DNA of 55,640 nt from Coriobacteriia bacterium (GTDB lineage: Bacteria > Actinomycetota > Coriobacteriia > Anaerosomatales > JAAXUF01), in contig JAAXWY010000011.1 of the NCBI GenBank assembly GCA_013334745.1, positions 1-55,640 of the forward strand, given 5' to 3'. The notes beneath the pieces are model-generated. The model was not told the DNA's origin. It did no database searches and saw only the letters and a program-made list of their open reading frames with translations. The first letter of the stretch is position 1, and each line of letters starts with the position of its first letter. Below are positions 2,460-24,634 of the stretch, piece by piece. A program made the position numbers and the translations under genes.

Positions 2460-4133
2460 ATGGCGGAAGCGAGACAGCGGCTCGGCGCACTGCTCATGCG
2501 AGCAGGGATTGTCACCGAGAAGCAACTCAACGATGCGCTCGAAGTGCATCGCGCGACCGGCAGCCCGCTCGGGCGCATCCTTGTTGACCTTGGATACGCG
2601 ACCCAAGGCGCCATCCTGTCGGTCATGGCGCATCAGATCGGCATCGAGTACATCGATTTCGCCGAGGTGCGGCCTGAGCCTGCCGCCGTCTGTCTCGTCT
2701 CGCGTGAGATGGCGAGTCGCTACATCCTGATGCCGATTGAGATTCGCGACGATCATCTGGTCGTTGCGATGGCCGATCCGCAGAACGTCCTCGCGCTGGA
2801 TGACCTGCGCATAATCACGAACTACGAGATCAGGCCCGCGATCTCGACGAAGGACGATATCGTCGCAGCCATCGAGCAGTACTACCGAGAGGCAGAGTCC
2901 GAGGAAAGCGACCTGTTCCACGGCACGGACGAGCTGAGCAACGACGATCTCGCGGGATTGACCGAGGTCGAGAGCGAAGCGCCGGCGGTCAAGCTGGTGA
3001 ACTACATCATTCAGAAAGCGGTCGCCGACAGGGCTTCCGATATTCACATCGAGCCGCAGGAGCACGATCTTCGTGTTCGATTCCGCATCGACGGTGTGCT
3101 TCACGAAGCGATGCAGCCCGCACCGAAGTCGATCCAGACGTCGATCATCTCGCGGCTCAAGATCATGTCTGAGCTCGATATAGCCGAGTCGCGCAAACCG
3201 CAGGACGGGCACTGCGCGGTCGTGGTGTCAGGTCACACCGTCGACTTCCGTGTGTCCACTCTACCCACGGTCTACGGCGAGCGAGTCGTTCTCAGGATCC
3301 TTCGCAAGGACGCGATTCTGCTCGAGCTCAAGGACCTCGGGTTCTTGCCGTCGTCGCTTGATCGCTTCCAGTCGGCCTTCTCGAAACCCTACGGCACAGT
3401 TCTCGTGACCGGGCCCACGGGGTCGGGCAAGTCGACATCGCTCTATGCCGCCATCAACGTACTCAATGACCCGGCGAGGCACATCATCACAGCCGAGGAC
3501 CCCGTCGAGTATCGACTGCCCGGAGTCAATCAATGCCAGGTCAACTCCCGAGCCGGACTCACCTTCGCGCGAGCGCTGCGCTCCTTCCTGCGCTGCTCAC
3601 CCGACATCATCCTCATCGGTGAGATTCGCGATCAGGAGACGGCTCAAATCGCCATCGAGTCGGCGCTCACCGGTCACCTCGTGCTTTCAACACTCCACAC
3701 GAACGACTCGGCCGGCGCCGTCACCCGACTCATAGAGATGGGCGTCGAGCCGTTCCTGGTCTCATCTGCGGTTGACTGCGTTCTTGCCCAGCGCCTTGCG
3801 CGCAAGCTGTGCGGCGACTGCAAGCAGGAGTGGCGCCCGAAGTCGGAAGTGCTCATAGACGCGGGCTACGATGCCGATAATCTCCCGGAGGCCGTGTATC
3901 GCGCCGTCGGCTGCAAGAAGTGCGGCGGCACCGGTTACCGCGGCCGGATCGGTGTGCACGAAGTCCTCATGATGTCCGAGGAGATCAGTAAGCTGTGTGT
4001 TGAGGAGGCGACTTCTGAAGCCATTCGCGAAGTCGCGATCTCACAGGGCATGCGAACGTTGAGGCAAGACGGTCTTGAGAAGGTCCGCATGGGCCAGACG
4101 TCGATAGAAGAGGTCGTCCGGGTCATCGTATAG
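2460..4133 (+). CDS. pilB: Type IV pilus assembly (extension) ATPase PilB/GspE.
   Basis: N-terminal GspE_N-like domain. Walker A GPTGSGKST. Asp/His boxes. C-terminal tetracysteine CGDC...CKKCGG. Length 557 aa. Confidence 0.9.
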   Translation: MAEARQRLGALLMRAGIVTEKQLNDALEVHRATGSPLGRILVDLGYATQGAILSVMAHQIGIEYIDFAEVRPEPAAVCLVSREMASRYILMPIEIRDDHLVVAMADPQNVLALDDLRIITNYEIRPAISTKDDIVAAIEQYYREAESEESDLFHGTDELSNDDLAGLTEVESEAPAVKLVNYIIQKAVADRASDIHIEPQEHDLRVRFRIDGVLHEAMQPAPKSIQTSIISRLKIMSELDIAESRKPQDGHCAVVVSGHTVDFRVSTLPTVYGERVVLRILRKDAILLELKDLGFLPSSLDRFQSAFSKPYGTVLVTGPTGSGKSTSLYAAINVLNDPARHIITAEDPVEYRLPGVNQCQVNSRAGLTFARALRSFLRCSPDIILIGEIRDQETAQIAIESALTGHLVLSTLHTNDSAGAVTRLIEMGVEPFLVSSAVDCVLAQRLARKLCGDCKQEWRPKSEVLIDAGYDADNLPEAVYRAVGCKKCGGTGYRGRIGVHEVLMMSEEISKLCVEEATSEAIREVAISQGMRTLRQDGLEKVRMGQTSIEEVVRVIV

Positions 4134-4159
4134 CTCGGCAGCGAGCAGCTGTCGCAGGA

Positions 4160-5380
4160 TTGGGGGTCATCATGGCGACGTATGTGTACTCGGTTCGTGA
4201 CAAGGCCGGCAAGGTCGTCAAGGGCAAGCTCGAAGGCGACAGCAAAGAGGCCGTTCAGAATCGGCTGGCCCAGATGGGCTATATCATCCTCGAGCTCGAC
4301 ACGCAGGGCGGCTTCGCCGCCTTGAATGACATCCAGTTCGCTTCATCGGTCAAACCCAAGGAAGTCGCCATCTTCGCGCGGCAGTTCGCGACGATGATCA
4401 GCGCGGGCCTCTCGCTTACGAAGTGTCTCTCGATCCTGTCGGCCCAAACCGAAAGTGCGGCACTTCGGGTCGTCATCACGCAGATAGGCAAGGATGTCGA
4501 GGCCGGGCAGTCGCTGTCCGATGCCCTCGGCAAGCACCCAAAGGTGTTCCCGGCCATCTTCGTGAACATGGTTCGTGCAGGTGAGACGGGTGGTGTGCTC
4601 GACGAGGTGCTCAGCCGCCTCGCCGATCACCTCGAGTCCGAGCAGGCGCTCAAGAACAAGATCAAGTCGGCGATGACCTACCCGATTGCAATGGGCGGGC
4701 TTGTCCTCGTTGTCTTGGCGGCCATGATGATCTTCGTCGTGCCGACGTTCGAGAAGATGTTCACCGATATGGGCGGGAAGCTTCCGGCGATCACGCAGAT
4801 GCTCGTCGATGTATCCCACCTCGTGACGAGCGTGTGGGGAATCGCACTGGCCGTAGGCATCTTCGCCGCCGTTTCGCTGTTCAAGTGGTGGTCGGCCGGA
4901 CCGGGAAAGACAATATGGGACGGCGCGAAGCTCAACATGCCCGTATTCGGACCGCTGACCCGCAAGATCGCCCTCGCGAAGTTCACTCGGACCTTCGGCA
5001 CCTTGGTCTCAGCGGGCGTACCGATCCTCTCCGCGCTGGATATCGTCGCGGATACCTCGGGCAACGAAGTTGTCGCCAACGCCGTGAAGCACGCACGCAA
5101 TGCAATCAAGGAAGGCGAGACGATCGCGAAGCCGCTCTCCGAATCGAAGGTATTCCCGTCGATGCTCGTTCAGATGATCGCGGTCGGCGAGGAGACCGGT
5201 GCGCTCGACGCGATGCTCAACAAGATCGCCGACTTCTACGATGAAGAGGTCGCCGTCGCTACGGACGGTCTCACGTCACTCATCGAGCCGCTCATGATGG
5301 CGTCGCTCGGCGTGATCGTCGGCGGCATGGTCATCGCGCTGTACCTCCCGATGTTTCAGGTCATCACGCTCGTCAACTAG
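4160..5380 (+). CDS. pilC: Type IV pilus platform protein PilC/GspF.
   Basis: 406 aa polytopic protein with duplicated GspF-like domains. Located immediately downstream of pilB. Confidence 0.9.
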   Translation: MGVIMATYVYSVRDKAGKVVKGKLEGDSKEAVQNRLAQMGYIILELDTQGGFAALNDIQFASSVKPKEVAIFARQFATMISAGLSLTKCLSILSAQTESAALRVVITQIGKDVEAGQSLSDALGKHPKVFPAIFVNMVRAGETGGVLDEVLSRLADHLESEQALKNKIKSAMTYPIAMGGLVLVVLAAMMIFVVPTFEKMFTDMGGKLPAITQMLVDVSHLVTSVWGIALAVGIFAAVSLFKWWSAGPGKTIWDGAKLNMPVFGPLTRKIALAKFTRTFGTLVSAGVPILSALDIVADTSGNEVVANAVKHARNAIKEGETIAKPLSESKVFPSMLVQMIAVGEETGALDAMLNKIADFYDEEVAVATDGLTSLIEPLMMASLGVIVGGMVIALYLPMFQVITLVN

Positions 5381-5560
5381 TCGTTCAATTCAGCAGGACA
5401 GGCTGTCGACGCGTTGGTCGGCGCCTTGGATGACTGAGTTTGTGTTCATTGATCACAGGGAACACAACTCATATCGGATGTGTCGGGGGAGCGTCCTGAG
5501 AACTTGCTAAGAAAGTTCTAAAGTCCACGCTCGGGGCACCGATACACTACTTGTCAGGGT

Positions 5561-5579
5561 TGGGAGCAAAAGGCTCCCA
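5561..5579 (+). promoter_or_regulatory. Perfect 7-bp-stem hairpin TGGGAGC-aaaag-GCTCCCA, 35 nt upstream of the pilA1 start codon.
   Basis: The inverted repeat is visible directly in the sequence. It lies in the 233-nt pilC-pilA1 intergenic region. No U-tract follows. Confidence 0.3.
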
Positions 5580-5613
5580 CAATCCCCAGTAGGGGGGAAG
5601 GAGGTGCGGGGTC

Positions 5614-5961
5614 ATGAAGATGTTCCGTAAGGACGAGGGCTTCACACTCGTGGAACTCATGGTCGTCGTGCTCATTATCGGTATTCTTGTTGCTATCGCT
5701 ATTCCGGTCTTCAATGCTGCAAAGGCCAACGCCCAGAAGAAGTCGTGCTTCGCGAACCAGCGCACGATCGAGGGTGCGGCACAGACCTACGCCGCCGACA
5801 ACGACGGTACGCTTCCTGCAAGCCCGGCTGCGCTGACGCCGACCTACATCAAGGTCGCGCCGTTCTGCCCGGCTGACGCCTCGAAGGCCGCGTACTCGTT
5901 CGGTACGAGTGGCACCGTCGCTGCTTGCGGCTACGGGGATCCGGTTCACGGTCACTTCTAG
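5614..5961 (+). CDS. pilA: Type IVa major pilin (prepilin).
   Basis: Class III signal: MKMFRKDEG|FTLVELMVVV, with G at -1, F at +1 and E at +5. Hydrophobic alpha1 helix. C-terminal Cys pair (D-region). Strong RBS GGAGGTG. Length 115 aa. Confidence 0.85.
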   Translation: MKMFRKDEGFTLVELMVVVLIIGILVAIAIPVFNAAKANAQKKSCFANQRTIEGAAQTYAADNDGTLPASPAALTPTYIKVAPFCPADASKAAYSFGTSGTVAACGYGDPVHGHF

Positions 5962-5995
5962 GCCGACCGAGTTCCATCCAAGCACGAAGCCCTCA

Positions 5996-6020
5996 GGGCC
6001 GGCAGCTAAGCTGCCGGCCC
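5996..6020 (+). terminator. Strong GC-rich hairpin GGGCCGGCAGC-taa-GCTGCCGGCCC downstream of pilA1. A second, weaker CCGCC/GGCGG hairpin follows.
   Basis: Perfect 11-bp stem with a 3-nt loop beginning 35 nt after the pilA1 stop. A weak T follows, which is typical of high-GC intrinsic terminators. Confidence 0.5.
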
Positions 6021-6070
6021 TGTCGCATGCCCCGGGCCGCCTTTGGGGCGGCACTCGCGCGTTCACACGC

Positions 6071-6079
6071 TAGAATGGG
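6071..6079 (+). promoter_or_regulatory. Candidate -10 element TAGAATGGG upstream of pilD.
   Basis: TAnnnT -10 followed by a G-rich discriminator. The identical 9-mer recurs at 14009. Confidence 0.25.
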
Positions 6080-6123
6080 CGCGTACCCGCGACTTGGAGT
6101 GAATCCTGAACATCTTCTTCAAC

Positions 6124-6924
6124 ATGTGTGCCTTCGCGTTCGGGCTCATCTTCGGCTCGTTCGGCAACGTCGTGATCTGGCGGTTTCCGAGAGGCGAGTC
6201 ACTGTCGACACCCGGCTCGCATTGCCCCGTGTGCGACACCGCCATCGCCTGGTATGACAACGTCCCCGTTCTTTCGTGGATGCTGCTGCGCGGACGTTGC
6301 CGTGCGTGTGGGACGAAGATCTCTGCACGATATCCGGCAGTCGAGCTGCTGACCGGTGTTCTATGGCTTCTGGCGGCCATCCAGTTCGGCCCGACGGTCC
6401 AAGCTGGCTTCTGCGCCGCGTTCTTCTACCTTCTGGTGCTTCTGGCATTCATCGACTTGGACATAAAGCGTCTGCCCAACCCGCTTGTCGGGCTGCTCGC
6501 GCTCATCGGTGCGGTAGGCGTCGGGCTCTCACTCTTCGGTATCCCGGCGGCTCCGCTCATCGGTCCGGGCGGCGGGGTCTTGTCAAACCCGGCCGCGTTC
6601 GCTGTCGCGGGTTCGCTCTCGTCTGCAGGGCTCGTTCTGTTCATCGCACTTGCGTATCAGAAGGTGCGTGGCGTGGACGGATTCGGGATGGGAGACGTCA
6701 AACTGCTCGGGGCGATCGGTCTGTTCCTCGGCCCATATGCGCTGCTGACACTCTTCATCGGAAGCCTCATCGGGGCGGTGTATGGCTTGATCTCGGCTCG
6801 GACTTCACCGGATGGGCTGCGAAACACGTTTCCGTTCGGGCCTGCTCTGGCGGCCTCGGCCGTGATTGTGACGTTTGTCGGCGTGCCCCTCGTCGCTTGG
6901 TACCTGCACATCCTCACGTTCTAG
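6124..6924 (+). CDS. pilD: Prepilin peptidase and N-methyltransferase, A24 family.
   Basis: Zinc-binding CPVCDTAIAWYDNVPVLSWMLLRGRCRACG (C-x-x-C...C-x-x-C). Polytopic membrane protein. Length 266 aa. Confidence 0.85.
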   Translation: MCAFAFGLIFGSFGNVVIWRFPRGESLSTPGSHCPVCDTAIAWYDNVPVLSWMLLRGRCRACGTKISARYPAVELLTGVLWLLAAIQFGPTVQAGFCAAFFYLLVLLAFIDLDIKRLPNPLVGLLALIGAVGVGLSLFGIPAAPLIGPGGGVLSNPAAFAVAGSLSSAGLVLFIALAYQKVRGVDGFGMGDVKLLGAIGLFLGPYALLTLFIGSLIGAVYGLISARTSPDGLRNTFPFGPALAASAVIVTFVGVPLVAWYLHILTF

Positions 6925-6939
6925 GTGTGTGCGCTCGGT

Positions 6940-6953
6940 CACACGCGCGTGTG
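6940..6953. repeat. Perfect 14-bp palindrome CACACGCGCGTGTG immediately after pilD.
   Basis: Seen directly in the sequence. It could be a hairpin or a dimeric binding site in the pilD-pilA2 spacer. Confidence 0.3.
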
Positions 6954-7051
6954 CCTGGCTCCTCCAGACCTCTGTATCGCCTGACGATAATCGAGCCGTA
7001 ACATCTCGACGATCCGAGTCAGCGACGGAAGGAGATAGGAGGGTTGAACAC

Positions 7052-7411
7052 ATGCAGAAGTGCACAGCAGACGAGGGATTCACACTCCTCGAGATCATGG
7101 TCATCGTACTCATCGTCGGGATTCTTGTGGGGATCGCCATTCCGGTACTCGGCGCCGCCAAGGCCAACGCCCAGATGAAGTCGTGTTGGGCGAACCAGCG
7201 CTCCATCGAGGGCGCAGCGCAGACGTACGCGTCCGTGAACGGCGCAATGCCTGCCGGAGGTGCGGTTGACGGCGCAGGATGGGCGGTTCCCGTGTACATC
7301 GCTGAAGCGCCGATATGTCCGTGCGACGCCGCGATGAACCCGTATGAGATCGATGACCAGGGCACGGTAGTCAGTTGCTCGATGGGAGCGCCGGCCCACC
7401 AGCACTACTAA
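7052..7411 (+). CDS. Second type IVa pilin, paralog of pilA1.
   Basis: MQKCTADEG|FTLLEIMVIV, with G at -1, F at +1 and E at +5. RBS GGAGG is 8 nt upstream. Shares ANQR[ST]IEGAAQTYA and the C-terminal CPxD...HxH[FY] motifs with pilA1. Confidence 0.85.
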   Translation: MQKCTADEGFTLLEIMVIVLIVGILVGIAIPVLGAAKANAQMKSCWANQRSIEGAAQTYASVNGAMPAGGAVDGAGWAVPVYIAEAPICPCDAAMNPYEIDDQGTVVSCSMGAPAHQHY

Positions 7412-7659
7412 GTTCATTCACACGAGTGAAGGCCGCAGGGCTTTCGCACTACAGCCGAAGCCACGAAGTGACGATACTCTGCGCAGAAGCCCGGAAGCCA
7501 CCGACCCACGGTTCCGAGAAGATGCATGAGCGAGTCCGATTCGTGGCTTGGCTGTTTTCGGGGCTGGTGGGGACTTGACGAGCATGATTGCGATACACTC
7601 TGTGGTATCATTTCCACGGGTCATTCGTCACAGTAGTAGTCGTGGATTTGTTGTAGCAG

Positions 7660-8799
7660 TTGAGGGAGGACGCGTTGGCCCCGGTATCGTTCGGTGCCGC
7701 ACTACCGCCTGTCGGTCTGGACATCGGGACCGACTTCATCCGCGCCGCGCAGATCAAGGCCGGCGGTGCTTCGCATTCACTGACCGCGTACGGGATTGCG
7801 CCGATGCCTTTCGGTGCGGTCGTTGAAGGCGAAGTCGTGGATCCCGAAGCCGTTTCCGCGGCCATCAAGGAGTTGTGGCACCGCAGCGGCGTGCGCAACA
7901 AGTCGGTTGCTGTCGGGGTCTCGAACCAGAAGGTCGTCGTTCGCCTAGTCGACCTGCCGTACATGGAGCGCGCCGAACTCGCGGGTGCGATTCAGTACCA
8001 AGCCCAAGACTACATCCCGATTCCGATCGAGGAAGCGATCATCGACTTCCAGATCATCGGTGACTACATGACCCCGGCTGACGAGCACATGATGGAAGTT
8101 CTCCTCGTCGCGGCCCAGCGGGACATGATCGGCAACATCGTCTCCGCGGTCGAAGGCGCCGGTCTTCAGCTCGCGCAGGTCGACGTCACGGCATTCGCGC
8201 TGGTTCGCGCCCTGCTGGGGGCCACCCCTAAGTGGCTCTCCGAGGAGGCCGAGAACCCGGCTGAGGCCGTGGGTATCGTCCACATCAGTTCCGGGCTGAC
8301 GAACATCGCGGTCGTGGAGCGTGGGCTTCCGCGTTTCACTCGCGTGTCATCGCTTGCCGCAAACCAGTTCACGCAAGCGATTGCCAACGTCATGAATCTG
8401 ACGTTTGACGAAGCCGAGAACCTTAAGGCCAGGGCGGGGCTGCCCGATATCGATCAGCCGGCCGAGTCGCACCCGGATCTCGATGCCGCCACGCTCTCCG
8501 CGGTGCAGGATGCGCTCGAGCGCGAAGCGAACAAGTTCATCGCCGAGGTTCGCAGGTCATTTGACTACTATCTCACCCAGGCCGTGCAGGTTCGAAGCAT
8601 CGGTCGGATCTACCTCACAGGCACCGGGGCCGAGCTTCGGAACCTGCCCGTGTACCTCGGACGCGGTCTCCAGACCGAGGTCGTGCTGGGGGACGCGCTG
8701 GCCGGGTTGCAGATGAGCGGCTCAGTCGAGTCCTCCGTGCTGCCGGATCGCGCGGGCTGTGCTGCAGCGATCGGCTTGGCGCTGGGAGGGGTGGTGTAG
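7660..8799 (+). CDS. pilM: Type IV pilus assembly protein PilM, an actin-like ATPase fold protein.
   Basis: LDIGTDFIRAAQ N-terminal sugar-kinase/actin fold motif. The stop abuts the pilN ATG. The true start may be the TTG at 7675, which follows a GGGAGG RBS. Confidence 0.85.
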   Translation: MREDALAPVSFGAALPPVGLDIGTDFIRAAQIKAGGASHSLTAYGIAPMPFGAVVEGEVVDPEAVSAAIKELWHRSGVRNKSVAVGVSNQKVVVRLVDLPYMERAELAGAIQYQAQDYIPIPIEEAIIDFQIIGDYMTPADEHMMEVLLVAAQRDMIGNIVSAVEGAGLQLAQVDVTAFALVRALLGATPKWLSEEAENPAEAVGIVHISSGLTNIAVVERGLPRFTRVSSLAANQFTQAIANVMNLTFDEAENLKARAGLPDIDQPAESHPDLDAATLSAVQDALEREANKFIAEVRRSFDYYLTQAVQVRSIGRIYLTGTGAELRNLPVYLGRGLQTEVVLGDALAGLQMSGSVESSVLPDRAGCAAAIGLALGGVV

Positions 8800-9441
8800 A
8801 TGCTTCGCATCAACCTGCTCCCTCGGGAGGTACTTGATCGCCAGAGGTTCCAAGGCTGGTACAGGTACGTCTTCATCATCACGCTTGGTCTCGTGCTCAT
8901 CGTTCTGCTCGTTGCGGCCGGCCTCTACTTCTCCGTGCAGCAGAAGAGCGATGAGTTGCAGTCAGCCAAGGATCGAGCGCAGCAGTACGCCGAACAGGGC
9001 AAGGCGTTCGACGTGTTTGAGAAGAAGGAGCAGGAGCTCACCGACCGACAGGCGATCGTCCAGACGGCGTTGGCCGGTCGTTTCAACTTCGGTCGTGTGG
9101 TCGAAGAGGTGTCCCTCGTTCTTCCCGACGAGGTGTGGCTCGATTCAATGAGTGTCGACCAGGCCAACGGACTGTCGATGGTCGCCAACACGCCTCGGTC
9201 GAGCAGCCAAAGCATGAATGTCGCCTACAAGTCGGTCGCAAAGACGCTTGTGCGGCTCAATGAGCTTTCAGAGGTCACCGACGTGTGGCTCACGAATGCA
9301 GCGAATCAGACCTGGAAGAACTGGGATGTATCCAGTTCTATCGACACAGGCACACCCGTGGTTCAGTTCACGGCGTCGGCGAAGTTCTCGCAGAGCACGC
9401 CATCGACCTCGACAGTAGCCCCAACGGGGGGTGCTGAGTGA
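8800..9441 (+). CDS. pilN: Pilus assembly protein PilN, bitopic.
   Basis: MLRINLLPRE N-terminus, a single TM helix and a coiled-coil periplasmic region. Tandem with pilM. Confidence 0.8.
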   Translation: MLRINLLPREVLDRQRFQGWYRYVFIITLGLVLIVLLVAAGLYFSVQQKSDELQSAKDRAQQYAEQGKAFDVFEKKEQELTDRQAIVQTALAGRFNFGRVVEEVSLVLPDEVWLDSMSVDQANGLSMVANTPRSSSQSMNVAYKSVAKTLVRLNELSEVTDVWLTNAANQTWKNWDVSSSIDTGTPVVQFTASAKFSQSTPSTSTVAPTGGAE

Positions 9442-10052
9442 TGTCCATCTCTCCTCGTGATCGTCTGGTCATCACCATTGTCGCGGCCGTACTTGTACTC
9501 GTCGCCCTGATTGCAGCGCTTGTGTACCCGCAGTTTCAGCAGGTGCGCAAGCTCAACACGCAGGTCATTGAGGCTGAAGCACAGGCCGACGCCGCAAAGC
9601 TCCAACTCGAGCAGCGGCAGGGCTTCAAGGACCGCGCGATCGAAACCAACGCCAAGTGGCTTGGGCTCATGAATGAGGTTCCCGAGACGCCCGACCTGCC
9701 CTCGCTCATTATCGAGCTGCAGGACTCCGCATACGAGAGCGGCGTTCAGGTCATCAGCGTCACTCCGACACAGCCCACTCAGCTGACGGGGTATGCCGCA
9801 GTGCCGATCTCGATCGAGGTGCTTGGGACGTGGGCGGATACCGTCGACTACCTGCAGTCACTGATGAAGTTGGATCGCGGTGTCCGGGTCGTCGGTACGA
9901 ACGTGACTGTGGCCGGAAGCGGGGCACTGCCTGAGCGCCGAAACTCCAAGGTGCCTGCGTATGCGGTGAGCTCTGTGATTTCAATTGAGACGTATCTGAT
10001 CCCTGCCGCGGTCGAGACCGCGACTCCGTCCGCGACTTCGACTGCACAGTAG
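9438..10052 (+). CDS. pilO: Pilus assembly protein PilO.
   Basis: ATGA overlap with pilN. N-terminal TM helix plus coiled coil and a C-terminal ferredoxin-like region. Position in the operon. Confidence 0.8.
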   Translation: MMSISPRDRLVITIVAAVLVLVALIAALVYPQFQQVRKLNTQVIEAEAQADAAKLQLEQRQGFKDRAIETNAKWLGLMNEVPETPDLPSLIIELQDSAYESGVQVISVTPTQPTQLTGYAAVPISIEVLGTWADTVDYLQSLMKLDRGVRVVGTNVTVAGSGALPERRNSKVPAYAVSSVISIETYLIPAAVETATPSATSTAQ

Positions 10053-10062
10053 GGGAGGGAAC

Positions 10063-10680
10063 ATGGCCGACAACACGAATGGGCAGCCGCCGGTGGGACC
10101 AGATCAGAAGCCTGCCTCGGCGACTTCAGGCTTTCTCTCCTCCACCGCTGGCAAGCTCGTGGTCGGCGGTGTGCTGTTGTTCTTGGTGCTGATTGCGGTA
10201 GGCGCTCTCGCGTTCTTCTTCCTCTTCGGTTCCGCCGCTCAGAAGGTTGCTCCTAGCTCCTCGACCACCGCCACAGCTCCGTCCAACCCGGCGACCGAGG
10301 GCATCGTACCCACGGACCCGCCTGAGCAGCCGCTGGACGAGACATTCACCTTCCGCAACGTCTTTGCGCCCACGGTCACGCCCGCACAGTCGAGTACGGA
10401 CGCCGATTCCGGTAGCGGCGGCTCGAGTGGCGACACATCACCAACGGCGAGCGGCGCGACCGACACCCTCATCCTGAAGTCGATTCACACGGACTCGGGT
10501 GAGCGAGTCGCGACGTTCGAGTGGAACGGCGCGGTGTACGAGTGCCGTGAGGGCGACCAGGTCGCCCAATCGCCATGGGAGGTCGTGACCATCTACTCCG
10601 ATTCCGTCGTCATGTTGTACGGCGACAGTCGAATCACCCTCACCGTGGGCCAGGGCTACACCGGATCCTGGGACAAGTAG
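10063..10680 (+). CDS. PilP-like protein: TM anchor, an S/T/P-rich linker and a C-terminal beta-domain.
   Basis: The C-terminal domain LILKSIHTDSGERVATFEWNGAVYECREGDQV...VVTIYSDSVVMLYGDSRITLTVGQ resembles the PilP beta-sandwich pattern. Position directly after pilO. Confidence 0.5.
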   Translation: MADNTNGQPPVGPDQKPASATSGFLSSTAGKLVVGGVLLFLVLIAVGALAFFFLFGSAAQKVAPSSSTTATAPSNPATEGIVPTDPPEQPLDETFTFRNVFAPTVTPAQSSTDADSGSGGSSGDTSPTASGATDTLILKSIHTDSGERVATFEWNGAVYECREGDQVAQSPWEVVTIYSDSVVMLYGDSRITLTVGQGYTGSWDK

Positions 10681-10760
10681 CGCGTCCGGCCGCGTGGCCG
10701 AGCATGTCCGCCGGTCGCACCCGGCCGGCTTCGACCACCAAGTGAACGAAAGGCCCGGAT

Positions 10761-11912
10761 ATGCGTTACGAGACTGCAGGCGAATCCCATGGGCGGGCGC
10801 TCACCGCGATCGTCACTGATGTGCCCGCGGGAATCCCTATCGACACTGACGCCATAGACCGTGATCTTGCGCGCCGTCAAGGCGGCTACGGTCGAGGTGG
10901 CCGGCAGCGCATCGAGACCGATCGCGCGACGATCCTTTCGGGTGTTCGGTTCGGCAAGACCATTGGAAGCCCGGTTGCGCTGGCTGTGGCGAATCGGGAC
11001 TTTGAGAACTGGCTTGATGTCATGAGTACCTCAGGCGTGCGCCCTGACGGGATTCGCGAGACGCACCCACGTCCGGGACATGCCGACCTGGCAGGCGTGC
11101 TGAAGATCGGATCGGACGACGCCCGAGACATCCTTGAACGTGCGAGCGCGCGCGAGACGGCCGCGCGCGTCGCGGCGGGTGGTGTCGCGAAGGCGCTCCT
11201 GAGTGCCATGGGTGTGTCGGTGAGATCCTACGTCGAGGCTATCGGCGGGGTGGTCATGCCCCTGGTCGACGATCCATCGACAGTCGATCCCGAGGTCGTC
11301 GAGTCAAGCGCCGTTCGATGCCCGGACCCTGACGCCACGGAGTCCATGAAGGCACGCATAGACTCAGCCCGCGCTGATGGCGAGTCGCTGGGTGGGGTGT
11401 TCGTGGTGACCGCTACCGGGCTCGTCCCAGGCCTTGGATCGTACGCCGAGGCGATGCGTCGTCTCGATGCACGGCTTGCAGGTGCTGTGATCTCGATTCC
11501 TGCGATCAAGGGCGTCGAGTTCGGTCTGGGGTTTGCGGCCGCGGCGGTGCCCGGTAGCCAGGCCCATGACGAGATTCATCACGATGCCGAGAGCGGCTTT
11601 CATCGGCCAACGAACCGTGCCGGCGGACTCGAAGGCGGCATGACGAACGGTGAGCCGCTCGTCGTGCGCGCCGCGATGAAGCCGATTCCGACCTTGATGC
11701 GCCCTCTCGCGAGCGTGGATCTCGATAGCCTTGAGCCGGTGGACGCGAGCAAGGAGCGCAGCGACATCTGTGCGGTCCCGGCGGCGGCCGTCGTGGGTGA
11801 GGCCGAGGTCGCGATCGTGCTGGCAACCGCCTACATGGAGAAGTTCGGTGGGGACTGCCTTGAGGACATGCTCGTAGCGCGTGATGCCTACCTCTCCCGG
11901 ATCAGCCGATGA
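10761..11912 (+). CDS. aroC: Chorismate synthase.
   Basis: MRYETAGESHGRALTAIV N-terminus and a full-length 383 aa product. Confidence 0.9.
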   Translation: MRYETAGESHGRALTAIVTDVPAGIPIDTDAIDRDLARRQGGYGRGGRQRIETDRATILSGVRFGKTIGSPVALAVANRDFENWLDVMSTSGVRPDGIRETHPRPGHADLAGVLKIGSDDARDILERASARETAARVAAGGVAKALLSAMGVSVRSYVEAIGGVVMPLVDDPSTVDPEVVESSAVRCPDPDATESMKARIDSARADGESLGGVFVVTATGLVPGLGSYAEAMRRLDARLAGAVISIPAIKGVEFGLGFAAAAVPGSQAHDEIHHDAESGFHRPTNRAGGLEGGMTNGEPLVVRAAMKPIPTLMRPLASVDLDSLEPVDASKERSDICAVPAAAVVGEAEVAIVLATAYMEKFGGDCLEDMLVARDAYLSRISR

Positions 11913-13537
11913 GTCACGTATTCCTGATCGGGTTCATGGGCGCCGGCAAGTCGACGGTTGGTCCTCTCGTGGCTGAGCGACTGGGTCGGCCGTTCATCGA
12001 CCTGGACGAAGTAGTCGCGGGGCAGCAGGGCCGAGAAATCGTCGAGATCTTCGAGGGTGATGGCGAAGCGGCGTTTCGCGCCTTCGAGCTCGAGGCCCTT
12101 GGGTCGATCGCGGACCGTTGTGACTCAGTGGTCGCATGCGGGGGCGGTCTTGTCACGATGCCGACGTCTGTCACGCGCATGCGCAAGCTTGGAACCGTGG
12201 TCCATCTTGTTACGACTGCCGATGAGGCTCTCAAGCGAATTGCTGATCCGTCGACGCGACCACTTCTCGCGGGTGAGAACCCTGAGTTGGCCGCGCGGTC
12301 GTTGTTGGACTCAAGACGCGAACTCTACGCAGCCGCAGCGGACTACGAGGTCGACACTGTGGGTCGGCCTATTGCTGAGGTCGTGGATGAGGTGGTGCTG
12401 CGTGTTGCATCGGCGCCCCGGCGCGGCCGACCGGTTGTCGTCCCGGTCAAGGTCGGCGAGATGCCGTATGAGGTGGTCATCGGGCCGGGTGTCCTCGAGG
12501 ATGCTGGGGCGCTGCTGCGCATCGGTGCGCCAACGGCCGGGCGAATTGCGCTTGTCACTGACACGACGGTCGGAGACCTGTTCGGTCTTACGGTGGAGCG
12601 AAAGCTCATCGAAGAAGGCTACGCGGTTCATCCCCTCGCTGTAGCTCCGGGTGAAGACTCCAAGAACTGGGCCGTGGCTGGGGAGATCCTTGAGGCACTG
12701 GCGGAACTGCGCTTCGAGCGGACTGACTTCGTGGTCGCGCTCGGCGGCGGCGTAGTCGGCGACCTAGCCGGCTTTGTGGCGGCGACCTACCTGCGCGGGA
12801 TTGGCTTTGCTCAGGTTCCAACCACTCTGCTCGCGCAAGTCGACTCATCCGTTGGCGGCAAGACCGGTGTGGACCTCAAAGCCGGCAAGAACCTGGCAGG
12901 CGCCTTCAAACAGCCTACAATTGTGATAGCGGACACAAATACTCTGGAGTTGTTGCCGCAGAGCGAATGGCGCAGTGGAACCGCCGAAGTGGCGAAGAGC
13001 GCAGTTGTAGACGGTGAGGAGTTCTTCAGCTGGCTCGAGGCCGCCGCTGAGCGGTTCGTTTCCAGGGATGAACGGACGATTATCGAGGCAGTTTCTCGGT
13101 GCGTCAGGTTCAAGGCGAGCGTCGTATCTGCCGATGAAACCGAGGTAGGACCGCGCGAGTGTTTGAACTACGGACACACGCTCGGGCATGCGATCGAGAA
13201 GGTTGCCGGTTACGGCGCGGTTCCGCACGGGATCGCGGTCGCGGAGGGCATGCGATTTGCGGCGAGACTCTCGGTCGAGGTTTCGGGTGGGAGCAGGGAG
13301 TTCGTCGCGAGGCAGGATGCCATCCTCGATACCCTCGGATTGGGAGCGATGACAGAGGCGCTGGATCCGCAATTGGTGCTTGAGGCAATGCATTCCGACA
13401 AGAAGGCACGAGGTGGAACGGTGCGATTCGTACTGGTGGAAGCTCCAGGAACGTGGAGGTGCGAGCCGATCGCGGACGCCGTGATCGCCGAGCACCTCGA
13501 CGCTTGGTTGGAGTCGAAGGTCAGGAGGACGCCATGA
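11909..13537 (+). CDS. Bifunctional shikimate kinase and 3-dehydroquinate synthase (AroK-AroB fusion).
   Basis: N-terminal [16 protein letters not shown]-loop (AroK, about 165 aa) fused to a DHQ synthase domain ([11 protein letters not shown]..., metal-binding His residues). ATGA overlap with aroC. Confidence 0.85.
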
Positions 13538-13968
13538 CGCGCGTACTTGTGCTCAACGGGCCCAACCTGAACCTTCTTGGCACGCGTGAGCCTGAGGTTT
13601 ACGGCTCCACAAGCCTCGCCGGTATCGAGTCCGACTTGAACGACCTCGCTCGCGAACTCGGCGTCGAGGTCGCGTTCGTGCAGAGCAACCACGAGGGCGA
13701 GCTGATCGACGCGGTTCAGCAGGCGGAGGGCACGTTTTCCGCGATTGTGTTCAATCCCGGAGCGTTCACGCACTACTCGTACGCACTGCGCGATGCAGTC
13801 GCGGCGATAGCGATTCCGGTCGTAGAGGTTCATCTGTCCAACATTTCCGCCCGTGAGGACTTCCGGAGAGAGAGTGTTATCGCGCCGGTGTGCGCGGGTC
13901 AGGTCAGCGGGTTTGGTACCGCATCGTACGCACTTGGGTTGCGCGCGGCCGCCAAACTGGTGAGCTAG
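13534..13968 (+). CDS. aroQ: Type II 3-dehydroquinate dehydratase.
   Basis: [24 protein letters not shown] is the canonical AroQ N-terminus. ATGA overlap with the aroKB stop. RBS AGGAGG. Confidence 0.9.
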
Positions 13969-14008
13969 CGCGTGTGTGAAGGGCACGGCTACGCAGCGGT
14001 GTGCGGCG

Positions 14009-14017
14009 TAGAATGGG
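14009..14017 (+). promoter_or_regulatory. Candidate -10 element TAGAATGGG upstream of the modular pilin gene.
   Basis: The same 9-mer as at 6071. It lies about 20 nt upstream of the ATG at 14035. Confidence 0.25.
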
Positions 14018-14034
14018 TAGAGGGAAGTGGCACG

Positions 14035-16062
14035 ATGATGGGGCTGAAGCGGTTCATGAAGAGTGACACTGGCTTCACTGTGGTGGAGTTCGTTATCGCT
14101 GCGGTGATTCTCTTCATGGTGTCCACGAGTGTGATGGGCGTGATCGCCTACGCCGGCACCGCGAATGCAGCGAACGCGATGCGGCAGAGCGGGCTTGAAC
14201 TTGCGAATCTCCGTATGGAACAGGCGCGCAACCTGTCGTACTCGAAACTTGGGACCGCGAGCGGCATTCCGACGGGCACCATCGAAACGCCTGAGATCGT
14301 CACGGTTCCCACAGCCGCCGGAGACCGCAGTTTCACGGTGGTTACCGACGTGGGTTGGGTGTGGGATGCTGACGGGTACTCGACCGACAAGAAGGTCACC
14401 ATCACTGTCTCGTGGACGTACCCGCGAGAGGCCAGTGTGACCCTGGAGTCGGCAGTCGTCGGAGAGGCCACCGGCAACACGGGCGACGTGTACGTCTACG
14501 TCGTGGACTCTGACACCAGCGACCCCGTACCGGGCGCCACTATCACGATCAAGCCGACCGCTTCGCCGACCGTCTCGGCGACGACTGGCTCGGCAGGTTA
14601 TGTACGTTGGGGAAAGGTGCCCACAGGCTCTATCGTCATAACGGGTACCTGCTCGACTCACTACCTTGATATGTCACCCGTCTCGGGCGCTACTGTGATT
14701 GCGAACCAGAAGAATATCTGGACCGTCCAGGGCGTTCGAGCAAGCAGCGGCACAGTTCACGTCACCGACAACTCGGGAAATCCGTTGCCCGGAGTTGCCG
14801 TGACAATCACGGGCCCGGCCGGATCAGCTGACTGGAGCTGTCCATCGGGAACCGGTACGGCCGTCTCGGATGAGAATGGTGACGCGTTTTTTGAGAAGTT
14901 GCGCAAAGGGACGTACACCGTCAGCGGCACCCTCAGCGGGTACAGCAAGAAGACGCCGGTGGACAACCTTGTCGTCGTCGCGGGTGGTAGCGCCTACACG
15001 AGTTCGCTTGTCATGAACCGCCTGACCACCCTGAAGGTCACGGTCAAGGACGCCAGCAACAACGCGATTCAAGGCGCTACTTGTACCGCGACAGGCGTCA
15101 CCTTCGGCGCTACGACCGATTCTCTCGGCCAGGCCACCAGCAACGACATGGGGGCCATCGGCACGAACAGGTCCTATACGGTCAGCGTCGCCAAGGCGGG
15201 ATACATCACCAACACGGGTACCGTCACGATGAGCCAGTACACCCAAGGTGAGGTCACCGTAGTCCTCTCGCCGCAGCCACCGACTACGATTCGGGTCACC
15301 GTCACCGATACCAGCGGAGTACCCATATCGGGCGCGACGTGCTCGGCGACGGGAGGGACGACGGTCGTATTCGCGTCGCTGACCGATGCGAACGGCGTCG
15401 CAACGAGCAATAACATGGGTGCCATCGGTACGGGCAAGACATATACCGTGACGGCCGCGAAGACGGGCTGGACGAGCAAGACGGGGACAGTGACCCTGAG
15501 CGAATACACGCAGGGGACGCTCACTATCCAGCTCTCGCCACCGGCACCGACCACGATCAAGGTGACCGTCACCAACAACACCGGGACGGCTCAGAAGGTC
15601 GTCGGTGCCACCATCACCGCCACCGGCCCGTCAACCGTGACGTTCCCGGCCGTCACCGACTCCAACGGCCAGGCGACCAGCAACAACATGGGTGCAATCG
15701 GCACGAACAAGACGTACACGGTGCGGTCGGTAAAGAGTGGATGGGTCACCACGACGGGCAACGTCACGCTTTCCGAGTACACGCAGGGAACGCTGACGAT
15801 CAAGATGCGCGCCACCCTTGAAGTGCTCTACAACGGCACGTACCCCCGTACGATCTACGTCTACACGAGCAGCACCCCGGGTGCGACCCATGCGTACACT
15901 CAGATAGCTCAGTCCGCCACGATTCCCGCCTCGTTCAATCTCCCGAGCGGCACCTACTGGGTGAGTCGACGTACCCCGTACGGCGGATCCGGTGCAGTGC
16001 CTCAGCCGCAGGTCGTGACGGACGGCGCGCTCAAGGCCGTCACGGCCCAGTCGAGCTGGTAG
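14035..16062 (+). CDS. Large modular type IV pilin-like protein, about 675 aa. A prepilin N-terminus is followed by five Ig-like/carboxypeptidase-regulatory-like beta-sandwich repeats.
   Basis: MMGLKRFMKSDTG|FTVVEFVIAAV, with G at -1, F at +1 and E at +5. RBS GAGGGAAG. Three well-conserved ~87-aa tandem repeats, preceded by two more divergent ones. S/T/G-rich composition. Confidence 0.75.
   Translation: MMGLKRFMKSDTGFTVVEFVIAAVILFMVSTSVMGVIAYAGTANAANAMRQSGLELANLRMEQARNLSYSKLGTASGIPTGTIETPEIVTVPTAAGDRSFTVVTDVGWVWDADGYSTDKKVTITVSWTYPREASVTLESAVVGEATGNTGDVYVYVVDSDTSDPVPGATITIKPTASPTVSATTGSAGYVRWGKVPTGSIVITGTCSTHYLDMSPVSGATVIANQKNIWTVQGVRASSGTVHVTDNSGNPLPGVAVTITGPAGSADWSCPSGTGTAVSDENGDAFFEKLRKGTYTVSGTLSGYSKKTPVDNLVVVAGGSAYTSSLVMNRLTTLKVTVKDASNNAIQGATCTATGVTFGATTDSLGQATSNDMGAIGTNRSYTVSVAKAGYITNTGTVTMSQYTQGEVTVVLSPQPPTTIRVTVTDTSGVPISGATCSATGGTTVVFASLTDANGVATSNNMGAIGTGKTYTVTAAKTGWTSKTGTVTLSEYTQGTLTIQLSPPAPTTIKVTVTNNTGTAQKVVGATITATGPSTVTFPAVTDSNGQATSNNMGAIGTNKTYTVRSVKSGWVTTTGNVTLSEYTQGTLTIKMRATLEVLYNGTYPRTIYVYTSSTPGATHAYTQIAQSATIPASFNLPSGTYWVSRRTPYGGSGAVPQPQVVTDGALKAVTAQSSW
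15031..15813 (+). repeat. Three tandem ~261-nt coding repeats. Each contains ...(I/L)(K/R)VTV(K/T)D...GATC(T/S)ATG...SNNMGAIGT(N/G)(K/R)(T/S)YTV...SEYTQGTLTI...
   Basis: Direct comparison of translated segments. The DNA copies are diverged to roughly 70% identity, so the duplication is not recent. Confidence 0.7.
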
Positions 16063-16071
16063 GCGAGGACA

Positions 16072-16728
16072 ATGCGATTCCTCGATGATGACAGCGGTCT
16101 GACCCTTACGGAGTTCTTGATCGTCGCGATGCTGATCTCTGTGATCATCACGGCGTCGTACTTCATGTTCAATGCCGCCGCCTCGATGACTGATCAGACG
16201 ACGGCGCGCGCCTACGCACAGGACGAGGCACAGCGCGCGGTCGACCGGATGACGCGCGATCTGCGGCAGTCGATGCAGGACACGAGCGACAACAACGGCG
16301 TTGTGCGGATCGCCGAGGCGAGCCAACTGAAGTTCTCAGCGGATGTCAATGCGGACATGAAGCCGGAGATGATCCGCTATTACATCGAGGGGAACTCGCT
16401 GAAGCGCACGGTGGCGCTCCCGACAACCTCTGAGGTTCCCTATAGCTACGGGAGTCCGGGTGCGCCCACGATACTGATCAAGAAGCTGGGAACGTCGGCT
16501 GGAACGATGTTCTGCTATCACAGCGTCGACCGCAACACGACCGTCTATTGCGGGCCCATCAAGCATGGATTCAACGTGGTCACCACGACCGACCCGTTTA
16601 ACACGACACCCAAGATCTCCATGATCGGAGTGAAGTTGGACACGGTGGGCGAATCCGGCTCCAAGACAGTCACTGTCACCAGCCGGGTGATGGTTCGCAT
16701 CCGCACAGTAGAGAATCGGGTTGATTAG
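16072..16728 (+). CDS. Minor pilin or pseudopilin with a prepilin-type N-terminal cleavage/methylation domain.
   Basis: MRFLDDDSG|LTLTEFLIVAMLISVII, with G at -1 and E at +5. Length 218 aa. Located 9 nt after the modular pilin stop. Confidence 0.7.
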   Translation: MRFLDDDSGLTLTEFLIVAMLISVIITASYFMFNAAASMTDQTTARAYAQDEAQRAVDRMTRDLRQSMQDTSDNNGVVRIAEASQLKFSADVNADMKPEMIRYYIEGNSLKRTVALPTTSEVPYSYGSPGAPTILIKKLGTSAGTMFCYHSVDRNTTVYCGPIKHGFNVVTTTDPFNTTPKISMIGVKLDTVGESGSKTVTVTSRVMVRIRTVENRVD

Positions 16729-16729
16729 C

Positions 16730-18073
16730 ATGAAGGCGCAGACTCGCTTCGATCGTTTGCGGAGCGCGGCCTCTGACGACAGAGGCATGGCGCTCGCGGT
16801 TGTCCTCATCATGTCGGCAGTGCTCTTCCTGCTGGCCACGACGCTGCTGATGGTGGTCTCGTACCGCGGCAATCAAACCGTCTCGGGCGAGAAGCACAAT
16901 CAGGCGATGCACGTCGCCGAGGCCGGGATCAACGAGTACATGTATCAGCTCAGTGTCGACTACGGCTACTGGCAGACCCACGAGACCCTCGGGCCTGTGA
17001 ACACGGAGGACGGACAGTGGCTCGTCACCCGGAGCCAGAACTCGTCGGACGTGGTCATCCTCACATCAGTCGGGACGCTGAACGACGGTACCGAGCGTAC
17101 CGTGCGTGCATCCGTCAGCTTCCCGAGCTGGGCGAAGTACATCGTCTGCGTCGATCAGGGTCCGTACAGCATCGGCGCCGGCGCCACGTTCTACGGCGAC
17201 GTCCACTGCAATGAGGGTATCAGCAACTCCGGGGTGATTACGGGTAGGGCCACAGCCGGGCTGGGGGCAAACTGCACCTGGGGTACGTCGGCGGCCGCAA
17301 ACTATCCTGGTGGCTATAAGAACAACTACAAGAACATCGACTTCAGCCAGCTCACCTACGACCTCGCTCAGATGAAGTCTACGGCGCAGGCCGAGTCGAC
17401 GTACAAGGCCGCTTCAGGCTTCCTTGGCTACCAAGCGGTGATCAATGGTGCCACGGTGACCATCACCAAGATCCAGGCGATAAACAAGAACCTGCCAAGA
17501 ACCGGCTACCCGAGCGACCCGCTGCTTGGTGCGATCACCACCACCGGCACAGCCGAGGTCTACGCGATTCCGCACAGCGGCGTCTTCTTCTTCGACGACA
17601 ACGTGTGGGTCACGGGGAACTACTCCGCGTCGGTCACGTTCGCCACGAGCAAGAACGTTTACTGCCCGGGCAACATCACCCCCACGACGAGCGGTGCCAA
17701 TGTGACGTGTGGGCTTGTCGCACAGCTGCAGGTGCTGTTCCCGTGGTGGTACCAGACGATGCCCGACGACCAGATGGTCCAGGCTGCGTGTTTGTCGCAG
17801 ACGGCCGGTGTCGGCCCCGAGGCGCCATCAGGGTTGAAGAAGTACAACACGACGACCAAGGCGTGGACCGACACGCTGACACTCGGTTCCTCTGACTACA
17901 AGAACTCCGTCACGCTCAAGGGCGCACGTGCCATGGTTCAGATGATCGGATTCTCGTCGGGCTACACAATCCGAAACTTCGACCGCGATCCGGTGCTGGC
18001 GAACAACCCGCCGCCGCTCTACCCCAAGCTGACCGGCGAGAGCCTGCAGATCGACACGTGGCAGGAGCTCTAG
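16730..18073 (+). CDS. PilX_N-like pilus assembly/minor pilin protein with a C-terminal S/T/G/N-rich beta-rich domain.
   Basis: The N-terminus ...ERGMALAVVLIMSAVLFLLATTLLMVV...HNQAMHVAEAGINE matches the PilX N-terminal pattern (G, then a hydrophobic helix, then ...AEAG...). There is no E at +5. The ATG is 1 nt after the previous stop. Confidence 0.6.
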   Translation: MKAQTRFDRLRSAASDDRGMALAVVLIMSAVLFLLATTLLMVVSYRGNQTVSGEKHNQAMHVAEAGINEYMYQLSVDYGYWQTHETLGPVNTEDGQWLVTRSQNSSDVVILTSVGTLNDGTERTVRASVSFPSWAKYIVCVDQGPYSIGAGATFYGDVHCNEGISNSGVITGRATAGLGANCTWGTSAAANYPGGYKNNYKNIDFSQLTYDLAQMKSTAQAESTYKAASGFLGYQAVINGATVTITKIQAINKNLPRTGYPSDPLLGAITTTGTAEVYAIPHSGVFFFDDNVWVTGNYSASVTFATSKNVYCPGNITPTTSGANVTCGLVAQLQVLFPWWYQTMPDDQMVQAACLSQTAGVGPEAPSGLKKYNTTTKAWTDTLTLGSSDYKNSVTLKGARAMVQMIGFSSGYTIRNFDRDPVLANNPPPLYPKLTGESLQIDTWQEL

Positions 18074-19229: not shown

Positions 19230-19274
19230 TACCCGCCCAGACGCGTGGGCCGACCGATTAGGGAGACAGAACTC

Positions 19275-20884: not shown

Positions 20885-21024
20885 CGGCTCGGCCCATATG
20901 GCCTCGTGTGCGTCGCCGTGTCTCCACAGGTCGTATATACTTGTCGTTCCACTCGAGCCCGACCGGCGCGCCTGCCAGGATTTCCGCGCCGGCTGATAGT
21001 TGACTGCACCCACAAGGAGGGGCG

Positions 21025-22878: not shown

Positions 22879-22896
22879 CCGACCCGGAGGTCTTCC

Positions 22897-24246: not shown

Positions 24247-24276
24247 CCGCCACTACAGCGAAGGAGTGTGACGGGC

Positions 24277-24627: not shown

Positions 24628-24634
24628 GAGTCGG

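Follow-up and report, generated by a model that had tools for sequence, protein, structure and literature searches.

A type IVa pilus locus interleaved with the aroC-aroKB-aroQ operon in a Coriobacteriia bacterium, with a PilP/GspC-HR-like protein and no secretin gene in the window

Introduction

Can a type IVa pilus (T4aP) locus keep a PilP-type protein where no secretin is encoded beside it? This question is raised by a stretch of 55,640 nucleotides (contig JAAXWY010000011.1 of assembly GCA_013334745.1; the whole 55.6-kb stretch is called the window below) from an NCBI metagenome-assembled genome (MAG) of an uncultured organism labelled 'Coriobacteriia bacterium'. In this stretch a series of pilus genes that ends with pilM, pilN, pilO and a PilP-like gene lies next to the housekeeping genes aroC, aroKB and aroQ. 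Our analysis makes it quite probable that the locus encodes a type IVa-class pilus machine of single-membrane (Gram-positive-type) Coriobacteriia, interleaved with the aroC-aroKB-aroQ operon.

T4aP occur in monoderm Firmicutes and Actinobacteria, and the secretin has been lost several times (PMC6668835). The cluster in diderm Firmicutes is arranged as in their monoderm relatives, with PilQ in addition (PMC5007114). T4aP that lack a secretin are thus accepted for monoderm Firmicutes and Actinobacteria (PMC6668835, PMC5007114). The pili studied in Actinobacteria are of the Tad/Flp type, and the only known function of the PilP/GspC homology region (HR) domain is to bind the N0 domain of the secretin; PilP is absent from the monoderm model Streptococcus sanguinis, which was considered 'logical' without a secretin (PMC6916266). 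Cultured environmental OPB41 Coriobacteriia have a Gram-positive wall in thin section, are non-motile and carry many pili-like appendages, whose genes were not analysed (PMC9686372). The T4aP of Actinomycetota are essentially unstudied, and our literature search returned nothing specific on a linkage of pilQ or pilM with aroC or aroK outside Proteobacteria, or on T4aP in Coriobacteriia.

Results

The pilus genes and the aro operon

We scanned 59 open reading frames (ORFs) from both strands of the window with Pfam, and compared the proteins of the locus with NCBIfam models and orthologue profiles. The material was one 55.6-kb contig of the MAG, together with flanks of about 20 kb for each relative. 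All the pilus and aro genes that a first-pass annotation had named were recovered, on the + strand and at or near its coordinates, by profile searches for all but the PilP-like gene. The genes of the locus are as follows (a slash in a leader marks the predicted cleavage site).

2460–4133, + strand: pilB, extension ATPase (Pfam T2SSE, E 6.5e-140; MshEN, E 1.4e-21)
4160–5380, + strand: pilC, platform protein (Pfam T2SSF, 234 bits, two stretches)
5614–5961, + strand: pilA1, candidate major pilin, 115 amino acids (N_methyl, E 1.1e-8; leader MKMFRKDEG/FTLVELM)
6124–6924, + strand: pilD, prepilin peptidase/N-methyltransferase (A24_N_bact, E 2.3e-36; Peptidase_A24, E 5.9e-11; CPVC...CRAC motif)
7052–7411, + strand: pilA2, second pilin and paralogue of pilA1, 119 amino acids (N_methyl, E 3.1e-4; leader MQKCTADEG/FTLLEIM)
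7660–8799, + strand: pilM, actin-like cytoplasmic component (PilM_2, E 8e-54, 183 bits; TIGR01175, 225 bits, cut-off 133)
8800–9441, + strand: pilN (N-terminal MLRINLLP, then a transmembrane helix)
9438–10052, + strand: pilO (Pfam PilO, E 1.2e-13, 51.8 bits)
10063–10680, + strand: PilP/GspC-HR-like bitopic membrane protein, 205 amino acids (no Pfam family; assigned by fold)
10761–11912, + strand: aroC, chorismate synthase (Chorismate_synt, E 1.9e-113)
11909–13537, + strand: aroK-aroB fusion, shikimate kinase and 3-dehydroquinate synthase (SKI, residues 10–164; DHQ_synthase/DHQS_C, residues 244–500)
13534–13968, + strand: aroQ, type II dehydroquinase (DHquinase_II, E 4.4e-60; 144 amino acids in the Logan gene call)
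14035–16062, + strand: large modular prepilin-type protein, 675 amino acids (leader ...KRFMKSDTG/FTVVEFV; CarboxypepD_reg, E 7e-30, 5 stretches)
16072–16728, + strand: minor pilin, GspJ/PilV/HpsC-like, 218 amino acids (leader MRFLDDDSG/LTLTEFL)
16721–18073, + strand: ComZ/GspK-like tip minor pilin with a beta-solenoid insertion, 450 amino acids (leader ...DDRG/MALAVV)

The best NCBIfam model for PilB was type IV-A PilB (642 bits, just below the equivalog cut-off of 675.65), and the protein carries a Walker A motif, GPTGSGKST, and a tetracysteine motif, CGDC...CKKC. Its residues 7–147 (window 2460–2900) hold an MshEN-type motif for binding of cyclic di-GMP (c-di-GMP) (RLGALLMRAGIV...; RLGALLMRAGIVTEKQLNDALEVH and then a second repeat), ahead of the MshEN domain; the model of this N-terminal motif, NF053729, was matched with 57 bits against a cut-off of 38. 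The motif suggests that pilus extension is controlled by c-di-GMP. The top NCBIfam models for PilC were the Myxococcus-type and Thermus-type PilC. The pilA1 gene is preceded by a strong GGAAGGAGG ribosome-binding site, and its product shows sub-threshold likeness to the ComGC, GspG and PilA models of NCBIfam. PilA2 is 57% identical to PilA1; the true start of its gene is the ATG at 7052, and the start at 6875 in the ORF list is wrong.

PilM is already annotated by NCBI, with a start a few codons downstream that gives 374 amino acids. The PilN protein alone scores 16.5 bits on Pfam PilN, which is below the threshold. It was identified as PilN because 10 of 20 orthologues match that family (best E 1.9e-8) and because the orthologue profile matches the Myxococcus xanthus PilN of PDB entry 3jc8 (3jc8_Na, E 8.8e-7). 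A motif of the INLLP type, present at its N-terminus, is the site where PilN binds PilM in the Thermus PilM-PilN structure. PilO gives weak matches to T2SSM/GspM. The genes pilM and pilN are directly adjacent, pilN and pilO overlap by 4 bases, and 10 bases separate pilO from the PilP-like gene.

The locus thus combines a PilB-type ATPase and PilC platform, PilD and class III leaders, and a PilM-PilN-PilO subcomplex. Class III leaders were found on five proteins: four have the form G/[FL][TS]..E, and the fifth is of the GspK/PilX type, G/MALAVV, without Glu5. These genes agree with the first-pass reading, in which the locus belongs to a pilus of the type IVa kind and PilM/N/O form its alignment complex; the T4aP genes in themselves are a known kind of system.

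Two other kinds of system were tried for the locus as a whole and rejected. For a ComG competence pilus, the ComGA, ComGB and ComGC models all scored below their cut-offs and below the Pil/Gsp models, and PilM, PilN and PilO are present. For a type II secretion system (T2SS), there is no secretin in the window and no PDZ domain, and the M-like protein is PilM_2.

The aro genes, confirmed by Pfam, stand directly against the pilus block as first annotated. The spacer of 80 bases between the PilP-like gene and aroC holds no terminator-like site, and aroC/aroKB and aroKB/aroQ overlap by 4 bases each, the real start of aroQ being the ATG at 13534. The aroK-aroB fusion is a single ORF of 542 amino acids in the window and of 535 amino acids in a related metagenome contig (L037). 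In many relatives the tblastn matches for the aroK and aroB halves fall in separate segments, which suggests that the two are separate genes or frames there.

After aroQ the pilus genes resume. The first-pass annotation had described the locus as compact and had ended it at 13968, which is too early: three minor-pilin genes follow at 14035–18073. With these three prepilin-type genes after aroQ, the pilus locus spans 2460–18073 and encloses the aro operon. The 675-residue protein has five CarboxypepD_reg/immunoglobulin (Ig)-like repeats, and its orthologues in relatives have 470–660 amino acids and the same leader. The 218-residue pilin has weak NCBIfam matches to HpsC, GspJ and PilV and scores 16.9 bits on TIGR02532 (cut-off 16.3). 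The 450-residue pilin has the ComZ/GspK-like build, with an N-terminal helix, a pilin beta-sheet and a large inserted domain.

The NCBI version of this last protein, HGB10_04680 (428 amino acids), starts at a Met just past the predicted prepilin cleavage site (window 16721–16786). That start drops the ...DDRG leader, which all homologues share, so the longer version that begins with the TTG at 16721 is the more likely one. Full-length homologues with 23–26% identity were found in Candidatus Parcubacteria, of the candidate phyla radiation (CPR), and among unnamed metagenome proteins (P0378–P0391). Their sequences hint that this tip-pilin type may be common to single-membrane lineages.

The PilP-like protein after pilO

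The ORF at 10063–10680 is the NCBI hypothetical protein HGB10_04650 [Coriobacteriia bacterium]. It begins with a 27-residue cytoplasmic segment and a transmembrane helix (residues 28–58); then come the conserved motif FTFRNVFAP, a linker rich in Ser and Thr and, at about residues 135–195, a C-terminal beta domain. It belongs to a family of proteins of about 200 amino acids with a single transmembrane helix, an FTFR(N/D)(V/I)F.P motif and a conserved C-terminal domain of about 65 residues. A word-indexed search gave 86 matches for this family, and an exhaustive HMMER search gave 586 representative clusters at 50% identity. The C-terminal domain is strongly conserved, with W172, G187 and D188 nearly invariant.

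An AlphaFold2 model from a 37-sequence alignment was confident for the transmembrane helix and for the six-stranded C-terminal domain (mean predicted local distance difference test of 87–97 in the blocks of residues 131–190). When this structure was searched against 48,164 chains, the eight best hits were all GspC, PilP, OutC, GspB or DotF; the best was the GspC HR domain, and the Myxococcus PilP (3jc8_Pa) was included. The protein therefore has the PilP/GspC HR fold: a membrane anchor and a disordered linker are followed, on the C-terminal side, by a small beta-sandwich domain. NCBIfam gave sub-threshold matches to GspC_delta (E 1.4e-5) and pilP_fam (E 3.7e-4), and the score on TIGR03021 was 21.5 bits, with a cut-off of 34.65.

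Judged from the modelled fold, the ORF is a PilP/GspC-HR-like protein with GspC-like bitopic topology that stands outside the Pfam PilP family. With that qualification, the first-pass view of the fourth protein in the pilMNO(P) block as PilP-like holds.

Absence of secretin and pilT genes from the window

The first-pass annotation had stated that the window lacks a secretin and pilT, and all our searches agreed with this. The Pfam scan of the 59 ORFs revealed no Secretin domain and no second T2SSE ATPase, and none of the large minus-strand ORFs checked is a secretin. Neither the window nor any of 33 related loci gave a tblastn match to Escherichia coli HofQ. When the PilT of a relative was the query, the match in the window was limited to the core of PilB, with 43% identity. 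An envelope that lacks an outer membrane, which the first-pass annotation had proposed from these absences, would be consistent with the taxonomy.

Conservation of the locus in relatives

A scan of genome collections with the PilP-like alignment found 33 species-level loci, and an exact-protein look-up added the metagenome contig L037. The 33 loci come from MAGs of uncultured Coriobacteriia/Actinomycetota, some of them labelled 'Eubacteriales', and no cultured OPB41 member is among them. The series pilM-N-O-PilP-like, followed by aroC, aroK/aroB, aroQ, pepQ and efp, was present in every one of these loci and in L037, wherever the flanks reach. The PilP-like gene occupies the pilP slot after pilO in 34 of 34 related loci and contigs. 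This conservation of pilM-N-O-PilP-like-aroC indicates that the arrangement is not due to chance. Identity among the relatives falls to 57% for PilM and to 32% for the PilP-like protein; a separate search for PilM homologues returned only relatives at identities of at least 65%.

One contig with the same gene order, L036 (ENA ERZ25039503 contig_26406), has PilB, PilC, PilM, AroC, PepQ and EF-P all split by frameshifts and is probably an uncorrected long-read assembly. The seemingly most distant PilP-like homologue, P0086 (353 amino acids), was discarded as an artefact of this frameshift-riddled contig.

The position of the minor-pilin block varies. It lies between pilD and pilM in 15 loci, between aroQ and pepQ in the window and 8 loci, and between the PilP-like gene and aroC in L023 only. 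In four relatives (L021, L022, L026 and L037) a bona fide pilT directly precedes pilC, and this links the system with the T4aP that retract. The absence of pilT thus stands for the window and fails as a trait of the lineage: it belongs to the locus of the window's sublineage.

We built a neighbour-joining tree of PilM+AroC, rooted at its midpoint only. On this tree the window-type layout forms a single nested clade, and the deeper branches have contiguous layouts with or without pilT. The deepest branches have the contiguous order pilT-pilC-pilA-pilD-minor pilins-pilMNOP-aroC. This is contrary to the first-pass suggestion that the layout is ancestral-looking. The sequences indicate instead that the layout of the window is probably derived, the minor pilins having been displaced across the aro operon and pilT having been lost from the locus.

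Discussion

How the machine might work

The results above establish what the genes are, their folds and synteny, and that the window has no secretin or pilT gene; from these, and from the standard T4aP assembly cycle of well-studied homologues, we infer the interactions, the piliation and the envelope type. PilD would cleave and N-methylate five prepilins, namely PilA1, PilA2 and the three minor pilins. A PilB hexamer, probably tuned by c-di-GMP through MshEN, would drive PilC to pull pilins from the membrane and polymerise them. PilM may clamp the INLLP N-terminus of PilN, and PilN and PilO together would form an extracytoplasmic alignment ring. The PilP-like protein would join PilN/PilO, plausibly via FRNVFAP, with its GspC-HR/PilP-type beta domain placed further out. 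As no secretin gene is found in the window, this domain is most likely a structural (distal) collar or stabiliser of PilNO, or a binder of a wall-zone partner.

The GspJ-like, ComZ/GspK-like and 675-residue modular pilins may prime assembly and sit at the tip, with the Ig-like repeats and the beta-solenoid as candidate adhesin and/or DNA-binding modules. The lack of pilT in the locus implies that the pilus would be non-retractile, or would be retracted by an ATPase encoded elsewhere. It may be speculated that a non-retractile filament would fit the non-motile, heavily piliated cultured relatives. The link between pil and aro genes is positional and probably also transcriptional (same strand, gaps of at most 80 bases), and not functional; it is a conserved neighbourhood of the lineage.

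Several points weigh against this interpretation. Pfam PilP (PF04351) was weakly matched by just 1 of 80 members of the PilP-like family, and the window protein had no match. Profiles of the family from 37- and 80-sequence alignments, run against PDB sequences, found no PilP and returned transmembrane or low-complexity noise only, and comparing the family with E. coli HofP by hhalign gave no significant match. Because of these three negatives, membership of PilP at the sequence level is not claimed, and the link to PilP consists of the fold and sub-threshold sequence matches. The anchoring is also different: the protein has a transmembrane helix and no lipobox or lipoprotein signal of classical PilP, which is a GspC-like topology. 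The results cover one contig of the genome, so secretin, pilT and outer-membrane genes may lie elsewhere, and the piliation of this organism is deduced from its genes. Finally, a scan for promoters and terminators stayed at the level of shuffled sequence (chance) and gave no operon boundaries, so co-transcription is judged solely from spacing.

Alternative explanations

Instead of a long surface T4aP, the same genes might build a short pseudopilus, of the competence type or like that of a T2SS, which would serve to take up DNA or to export proteins across the wall. The best NCBIfam matches of PilA1 and PilA2, all sub-threshold, are ComGC and GspG; the PilP-like protein is membrane-anchored like GspC and has the GspC HR domain as its best structural match, and the locus lacks pilT. 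However, the locus encodes PilM, PilN and PilO; ComG systems have none of these, and a T2SS has GspL/GspM. The type IV-A model gives the top score for PilB, pilT lies in the same locus of close relatives, a T2SS requires a secretin, and no ComEA, ComEC or DprA domain was found among the window ORFs scanned. The ComZ match does not discriminate between the two, because the ComZ of Thermus also belongs to a T4aP system. We therefore consider a pseudopilus unlikely. The PilP assignment itself could be mistaken, if the ORF at 10063–10680 were a lineage-specific membrane protein whose HR-like beta domain arose by convergence. The anchoring unlike that of classical PilP and the lack of a significant profile-to-sequence link to PilP would fit this. 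On the other hand, the eight best of 48,164 chains all fall in one functional family, GspC and PilP matched independently, below threshold, in NCBIfam, and all 34 related loci and contigs have the gene exactly in the pilP slot. Moreover, in PilP proteins an RDPF-like motif precedes the domain, and its counterpart here is FR[ND][IV]F.P. Convergence is thus improbable.

A secretin, or another conduit through an outer layer, might also be encoded elsewhere in the genome, in which case pilQ has merely moved and the PilP-like protein docks as in diderms. The secretin N0 domain is the sole known partner of the HR domain (PMC6916266). The strength of its conservation, with 586 representative clusters and the near-invariant W172, G187 and D188, would also favour this explanation, and our inspection covered about 20 kb per genome. 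However, a secretin was found neither in the window nor in the 33 related loci. NCBI places the MAG in the Coriobacteriia, which are a Gram-positive class, the cultured OPB41 members are Gram-positive-walled in thin sections, and the gene order of the window is that of the classical actinobacterial core, as in Mycobacterium tuberculosis. A moved pilQ is accordingly very unlikely, and a single-membrane T4aP machine with a PilP-like component remains the reading that we prefer.

Comparison with known systems

The first-pass annotation had seen in the locus an echo of the proteobacterial pilMNOPQ-aroK-aroB linkage. We verified the order hofM-N-O-P-Q-aroK-aroB in E. coli K-12, and the window has the same series minus Q. 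In both, the M-N-O-P order is followed by shikimate genes on the same strand, including aroK and aroB. The window differs in that P and the aro genes are not separated by pilQ, the aro series starts with aroC and has aroQ at its end, and aroK and aroB are fused. Its P protein is anchored by a transmembrane helix, whereas that of Proteobacteria is a lipoprotein, and pilBCAD lie immediately upstream instead of elsewhere in the genome.

Other systems are also similar only in part. The monoderm T4aP of Firmicutes (Streptococcus sanguinis, Clostridium spp.) have been described without PilP, whereas the window has a PilP/GspC-HR-type protein and its host belongs to the phylum Actinomycetota. In comparison with GspC of T2SS, which has the HR domain, there is no PDZ or coiled-coil region after the HR domain; GspD, GspL and GspM are lacking, and the neighbours are of the PilM/N/O type. 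The minor pilins of Thermus thermophilus (PilA1-3, ComZ) can be compared with the ComZ-like pilin of the window at 16% identity, and Thermus is a diderm with PilQ and PilW.

Two features depart from expectation: a conserved PilP/GspC-HR-like component without a secretin gene in view, and a pilMNOP-aro junction that lacks Q. The first contradicts the current view of monoderms. As a family of 586 clusters held in the pilP slot, it means that the HR domain can persist without a secretin encoded alongside, and its role is then probably independent of the secretin, for example in stabilising PilNO or organising the passage through the wall. As for the second, because the junction is the proteobacterial pilMNOPQ-aroKB order minus Q, a loss of the secretin in place is testable by comparative genomics.

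A bolder explanation would make the pilM-N-O-P/aro junction the remnant of an ancient pilMNOPQ-aro neighbourhood, shared with Proteobacteria and older than the divergence of the major bacterial clades. The secretin gene would have been excised at exactly this place when the ancestor of the Actinobacteria lost its outer membrane, and PilP would be a fossil repurposed as a wall-zone collar. We regard this as tentative and rather doubtful. If it were true, the position of these genes would speak for a transition from diderm to monoderm in Actinomycetota, and PilMNOP without Q would be a new class of alignment complex for monoderm T4aP. In addition, the ComZ-like tip pilin and the 675-residue modular pilin supply candidate adhesin or DNA-receptor modules. 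They may underlie the 'pili-like appendages' seen on Coriobacteriia cultured from the subsurface, for which no genes have been described.

Other features of the window

The G+C content of the window is about 60–68%, and nearly all of its real genes lie on the + strand. No riboswitch or other RNA was detected when the full window was scanned with Rfam, and in particular no c-di-GMP riboswitch upstream of the pilin. Upstream of pilB there are three further ORFs.

Ends at 559, + strand: acidic low-complexity protein
574–1104, + strand: small Ras/GPN-like GTPase (ATP_bind_1, E 1.9e-17)
1101–2357, + strand: transmembrane protein with a long Pro/Glu-rich region (no family)

The GTPase is 72–92% identical in 10 relatives, where it lies upstream of pilB with the divergent gene of the transmembrane protein intervening. 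Its conservation equals or exceeds that of PilB across the same loci (76–89%), and it might regulate the pilus in a conservon/MglA-like manner.

The 3' side of the locus is a long housekeeping run. It comprises pepQ, efp, an acyltransferase, a pyruvate/oxaloacetate carboxylase subunit, accC, nusB and dxs; then tlyA, nadK, recN, steA, mctB, murJ (minus strand), two family-less ORFs and pyrG; then an M20 peptidase, DUF3866, ald and an SPFH protein; and lastly an xerD-type recombinase, a Bmp-type ABC transporter, DUF4349 (minus strand), mraZ and rsmH. The two family-less ORFs, in the murJ-pyrG interval, are large and successive on the + strand (35356–38686; 785 and 330 amino acids) and match no Pfam or NCBIfam family.

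The minus-strand gene at 52132–53196 (DUF4349, E 6.9e-55) is the sole real one among the large minus-strand ORFs checked. A + strand ORF inside it, 52090–52695, is family-less and probably spurious. A further ORF at 53147–53713, also family-less, overlaps the end of the DUF4349 gene by about 50 bases.

In M. tuberculosis the order is aroF-aroK-aroB-aroD-pepQ-efp-nusB and tlyA-ppnK-recN-Rv1697-mctB-pyrG. The window thus follows the classical core order of actinobacteria, in agreement with the NCBI label 'Coriobacteriia bacterium'. The stretch at 18111–30679, with aroQ-pepQ-efp-...-accC-nusB-dxs-tlyA-nadK-recN, also presumably resembles the Bacillus subtilis series aroQ-papA-efp-spoIIIA-accBC-nusB-...-dxs-...-recN. 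This likeness suggests that the aroQ-...-recN series is a very old Terrabacteria neighbourhood in which genes related to type IV filaments recur.

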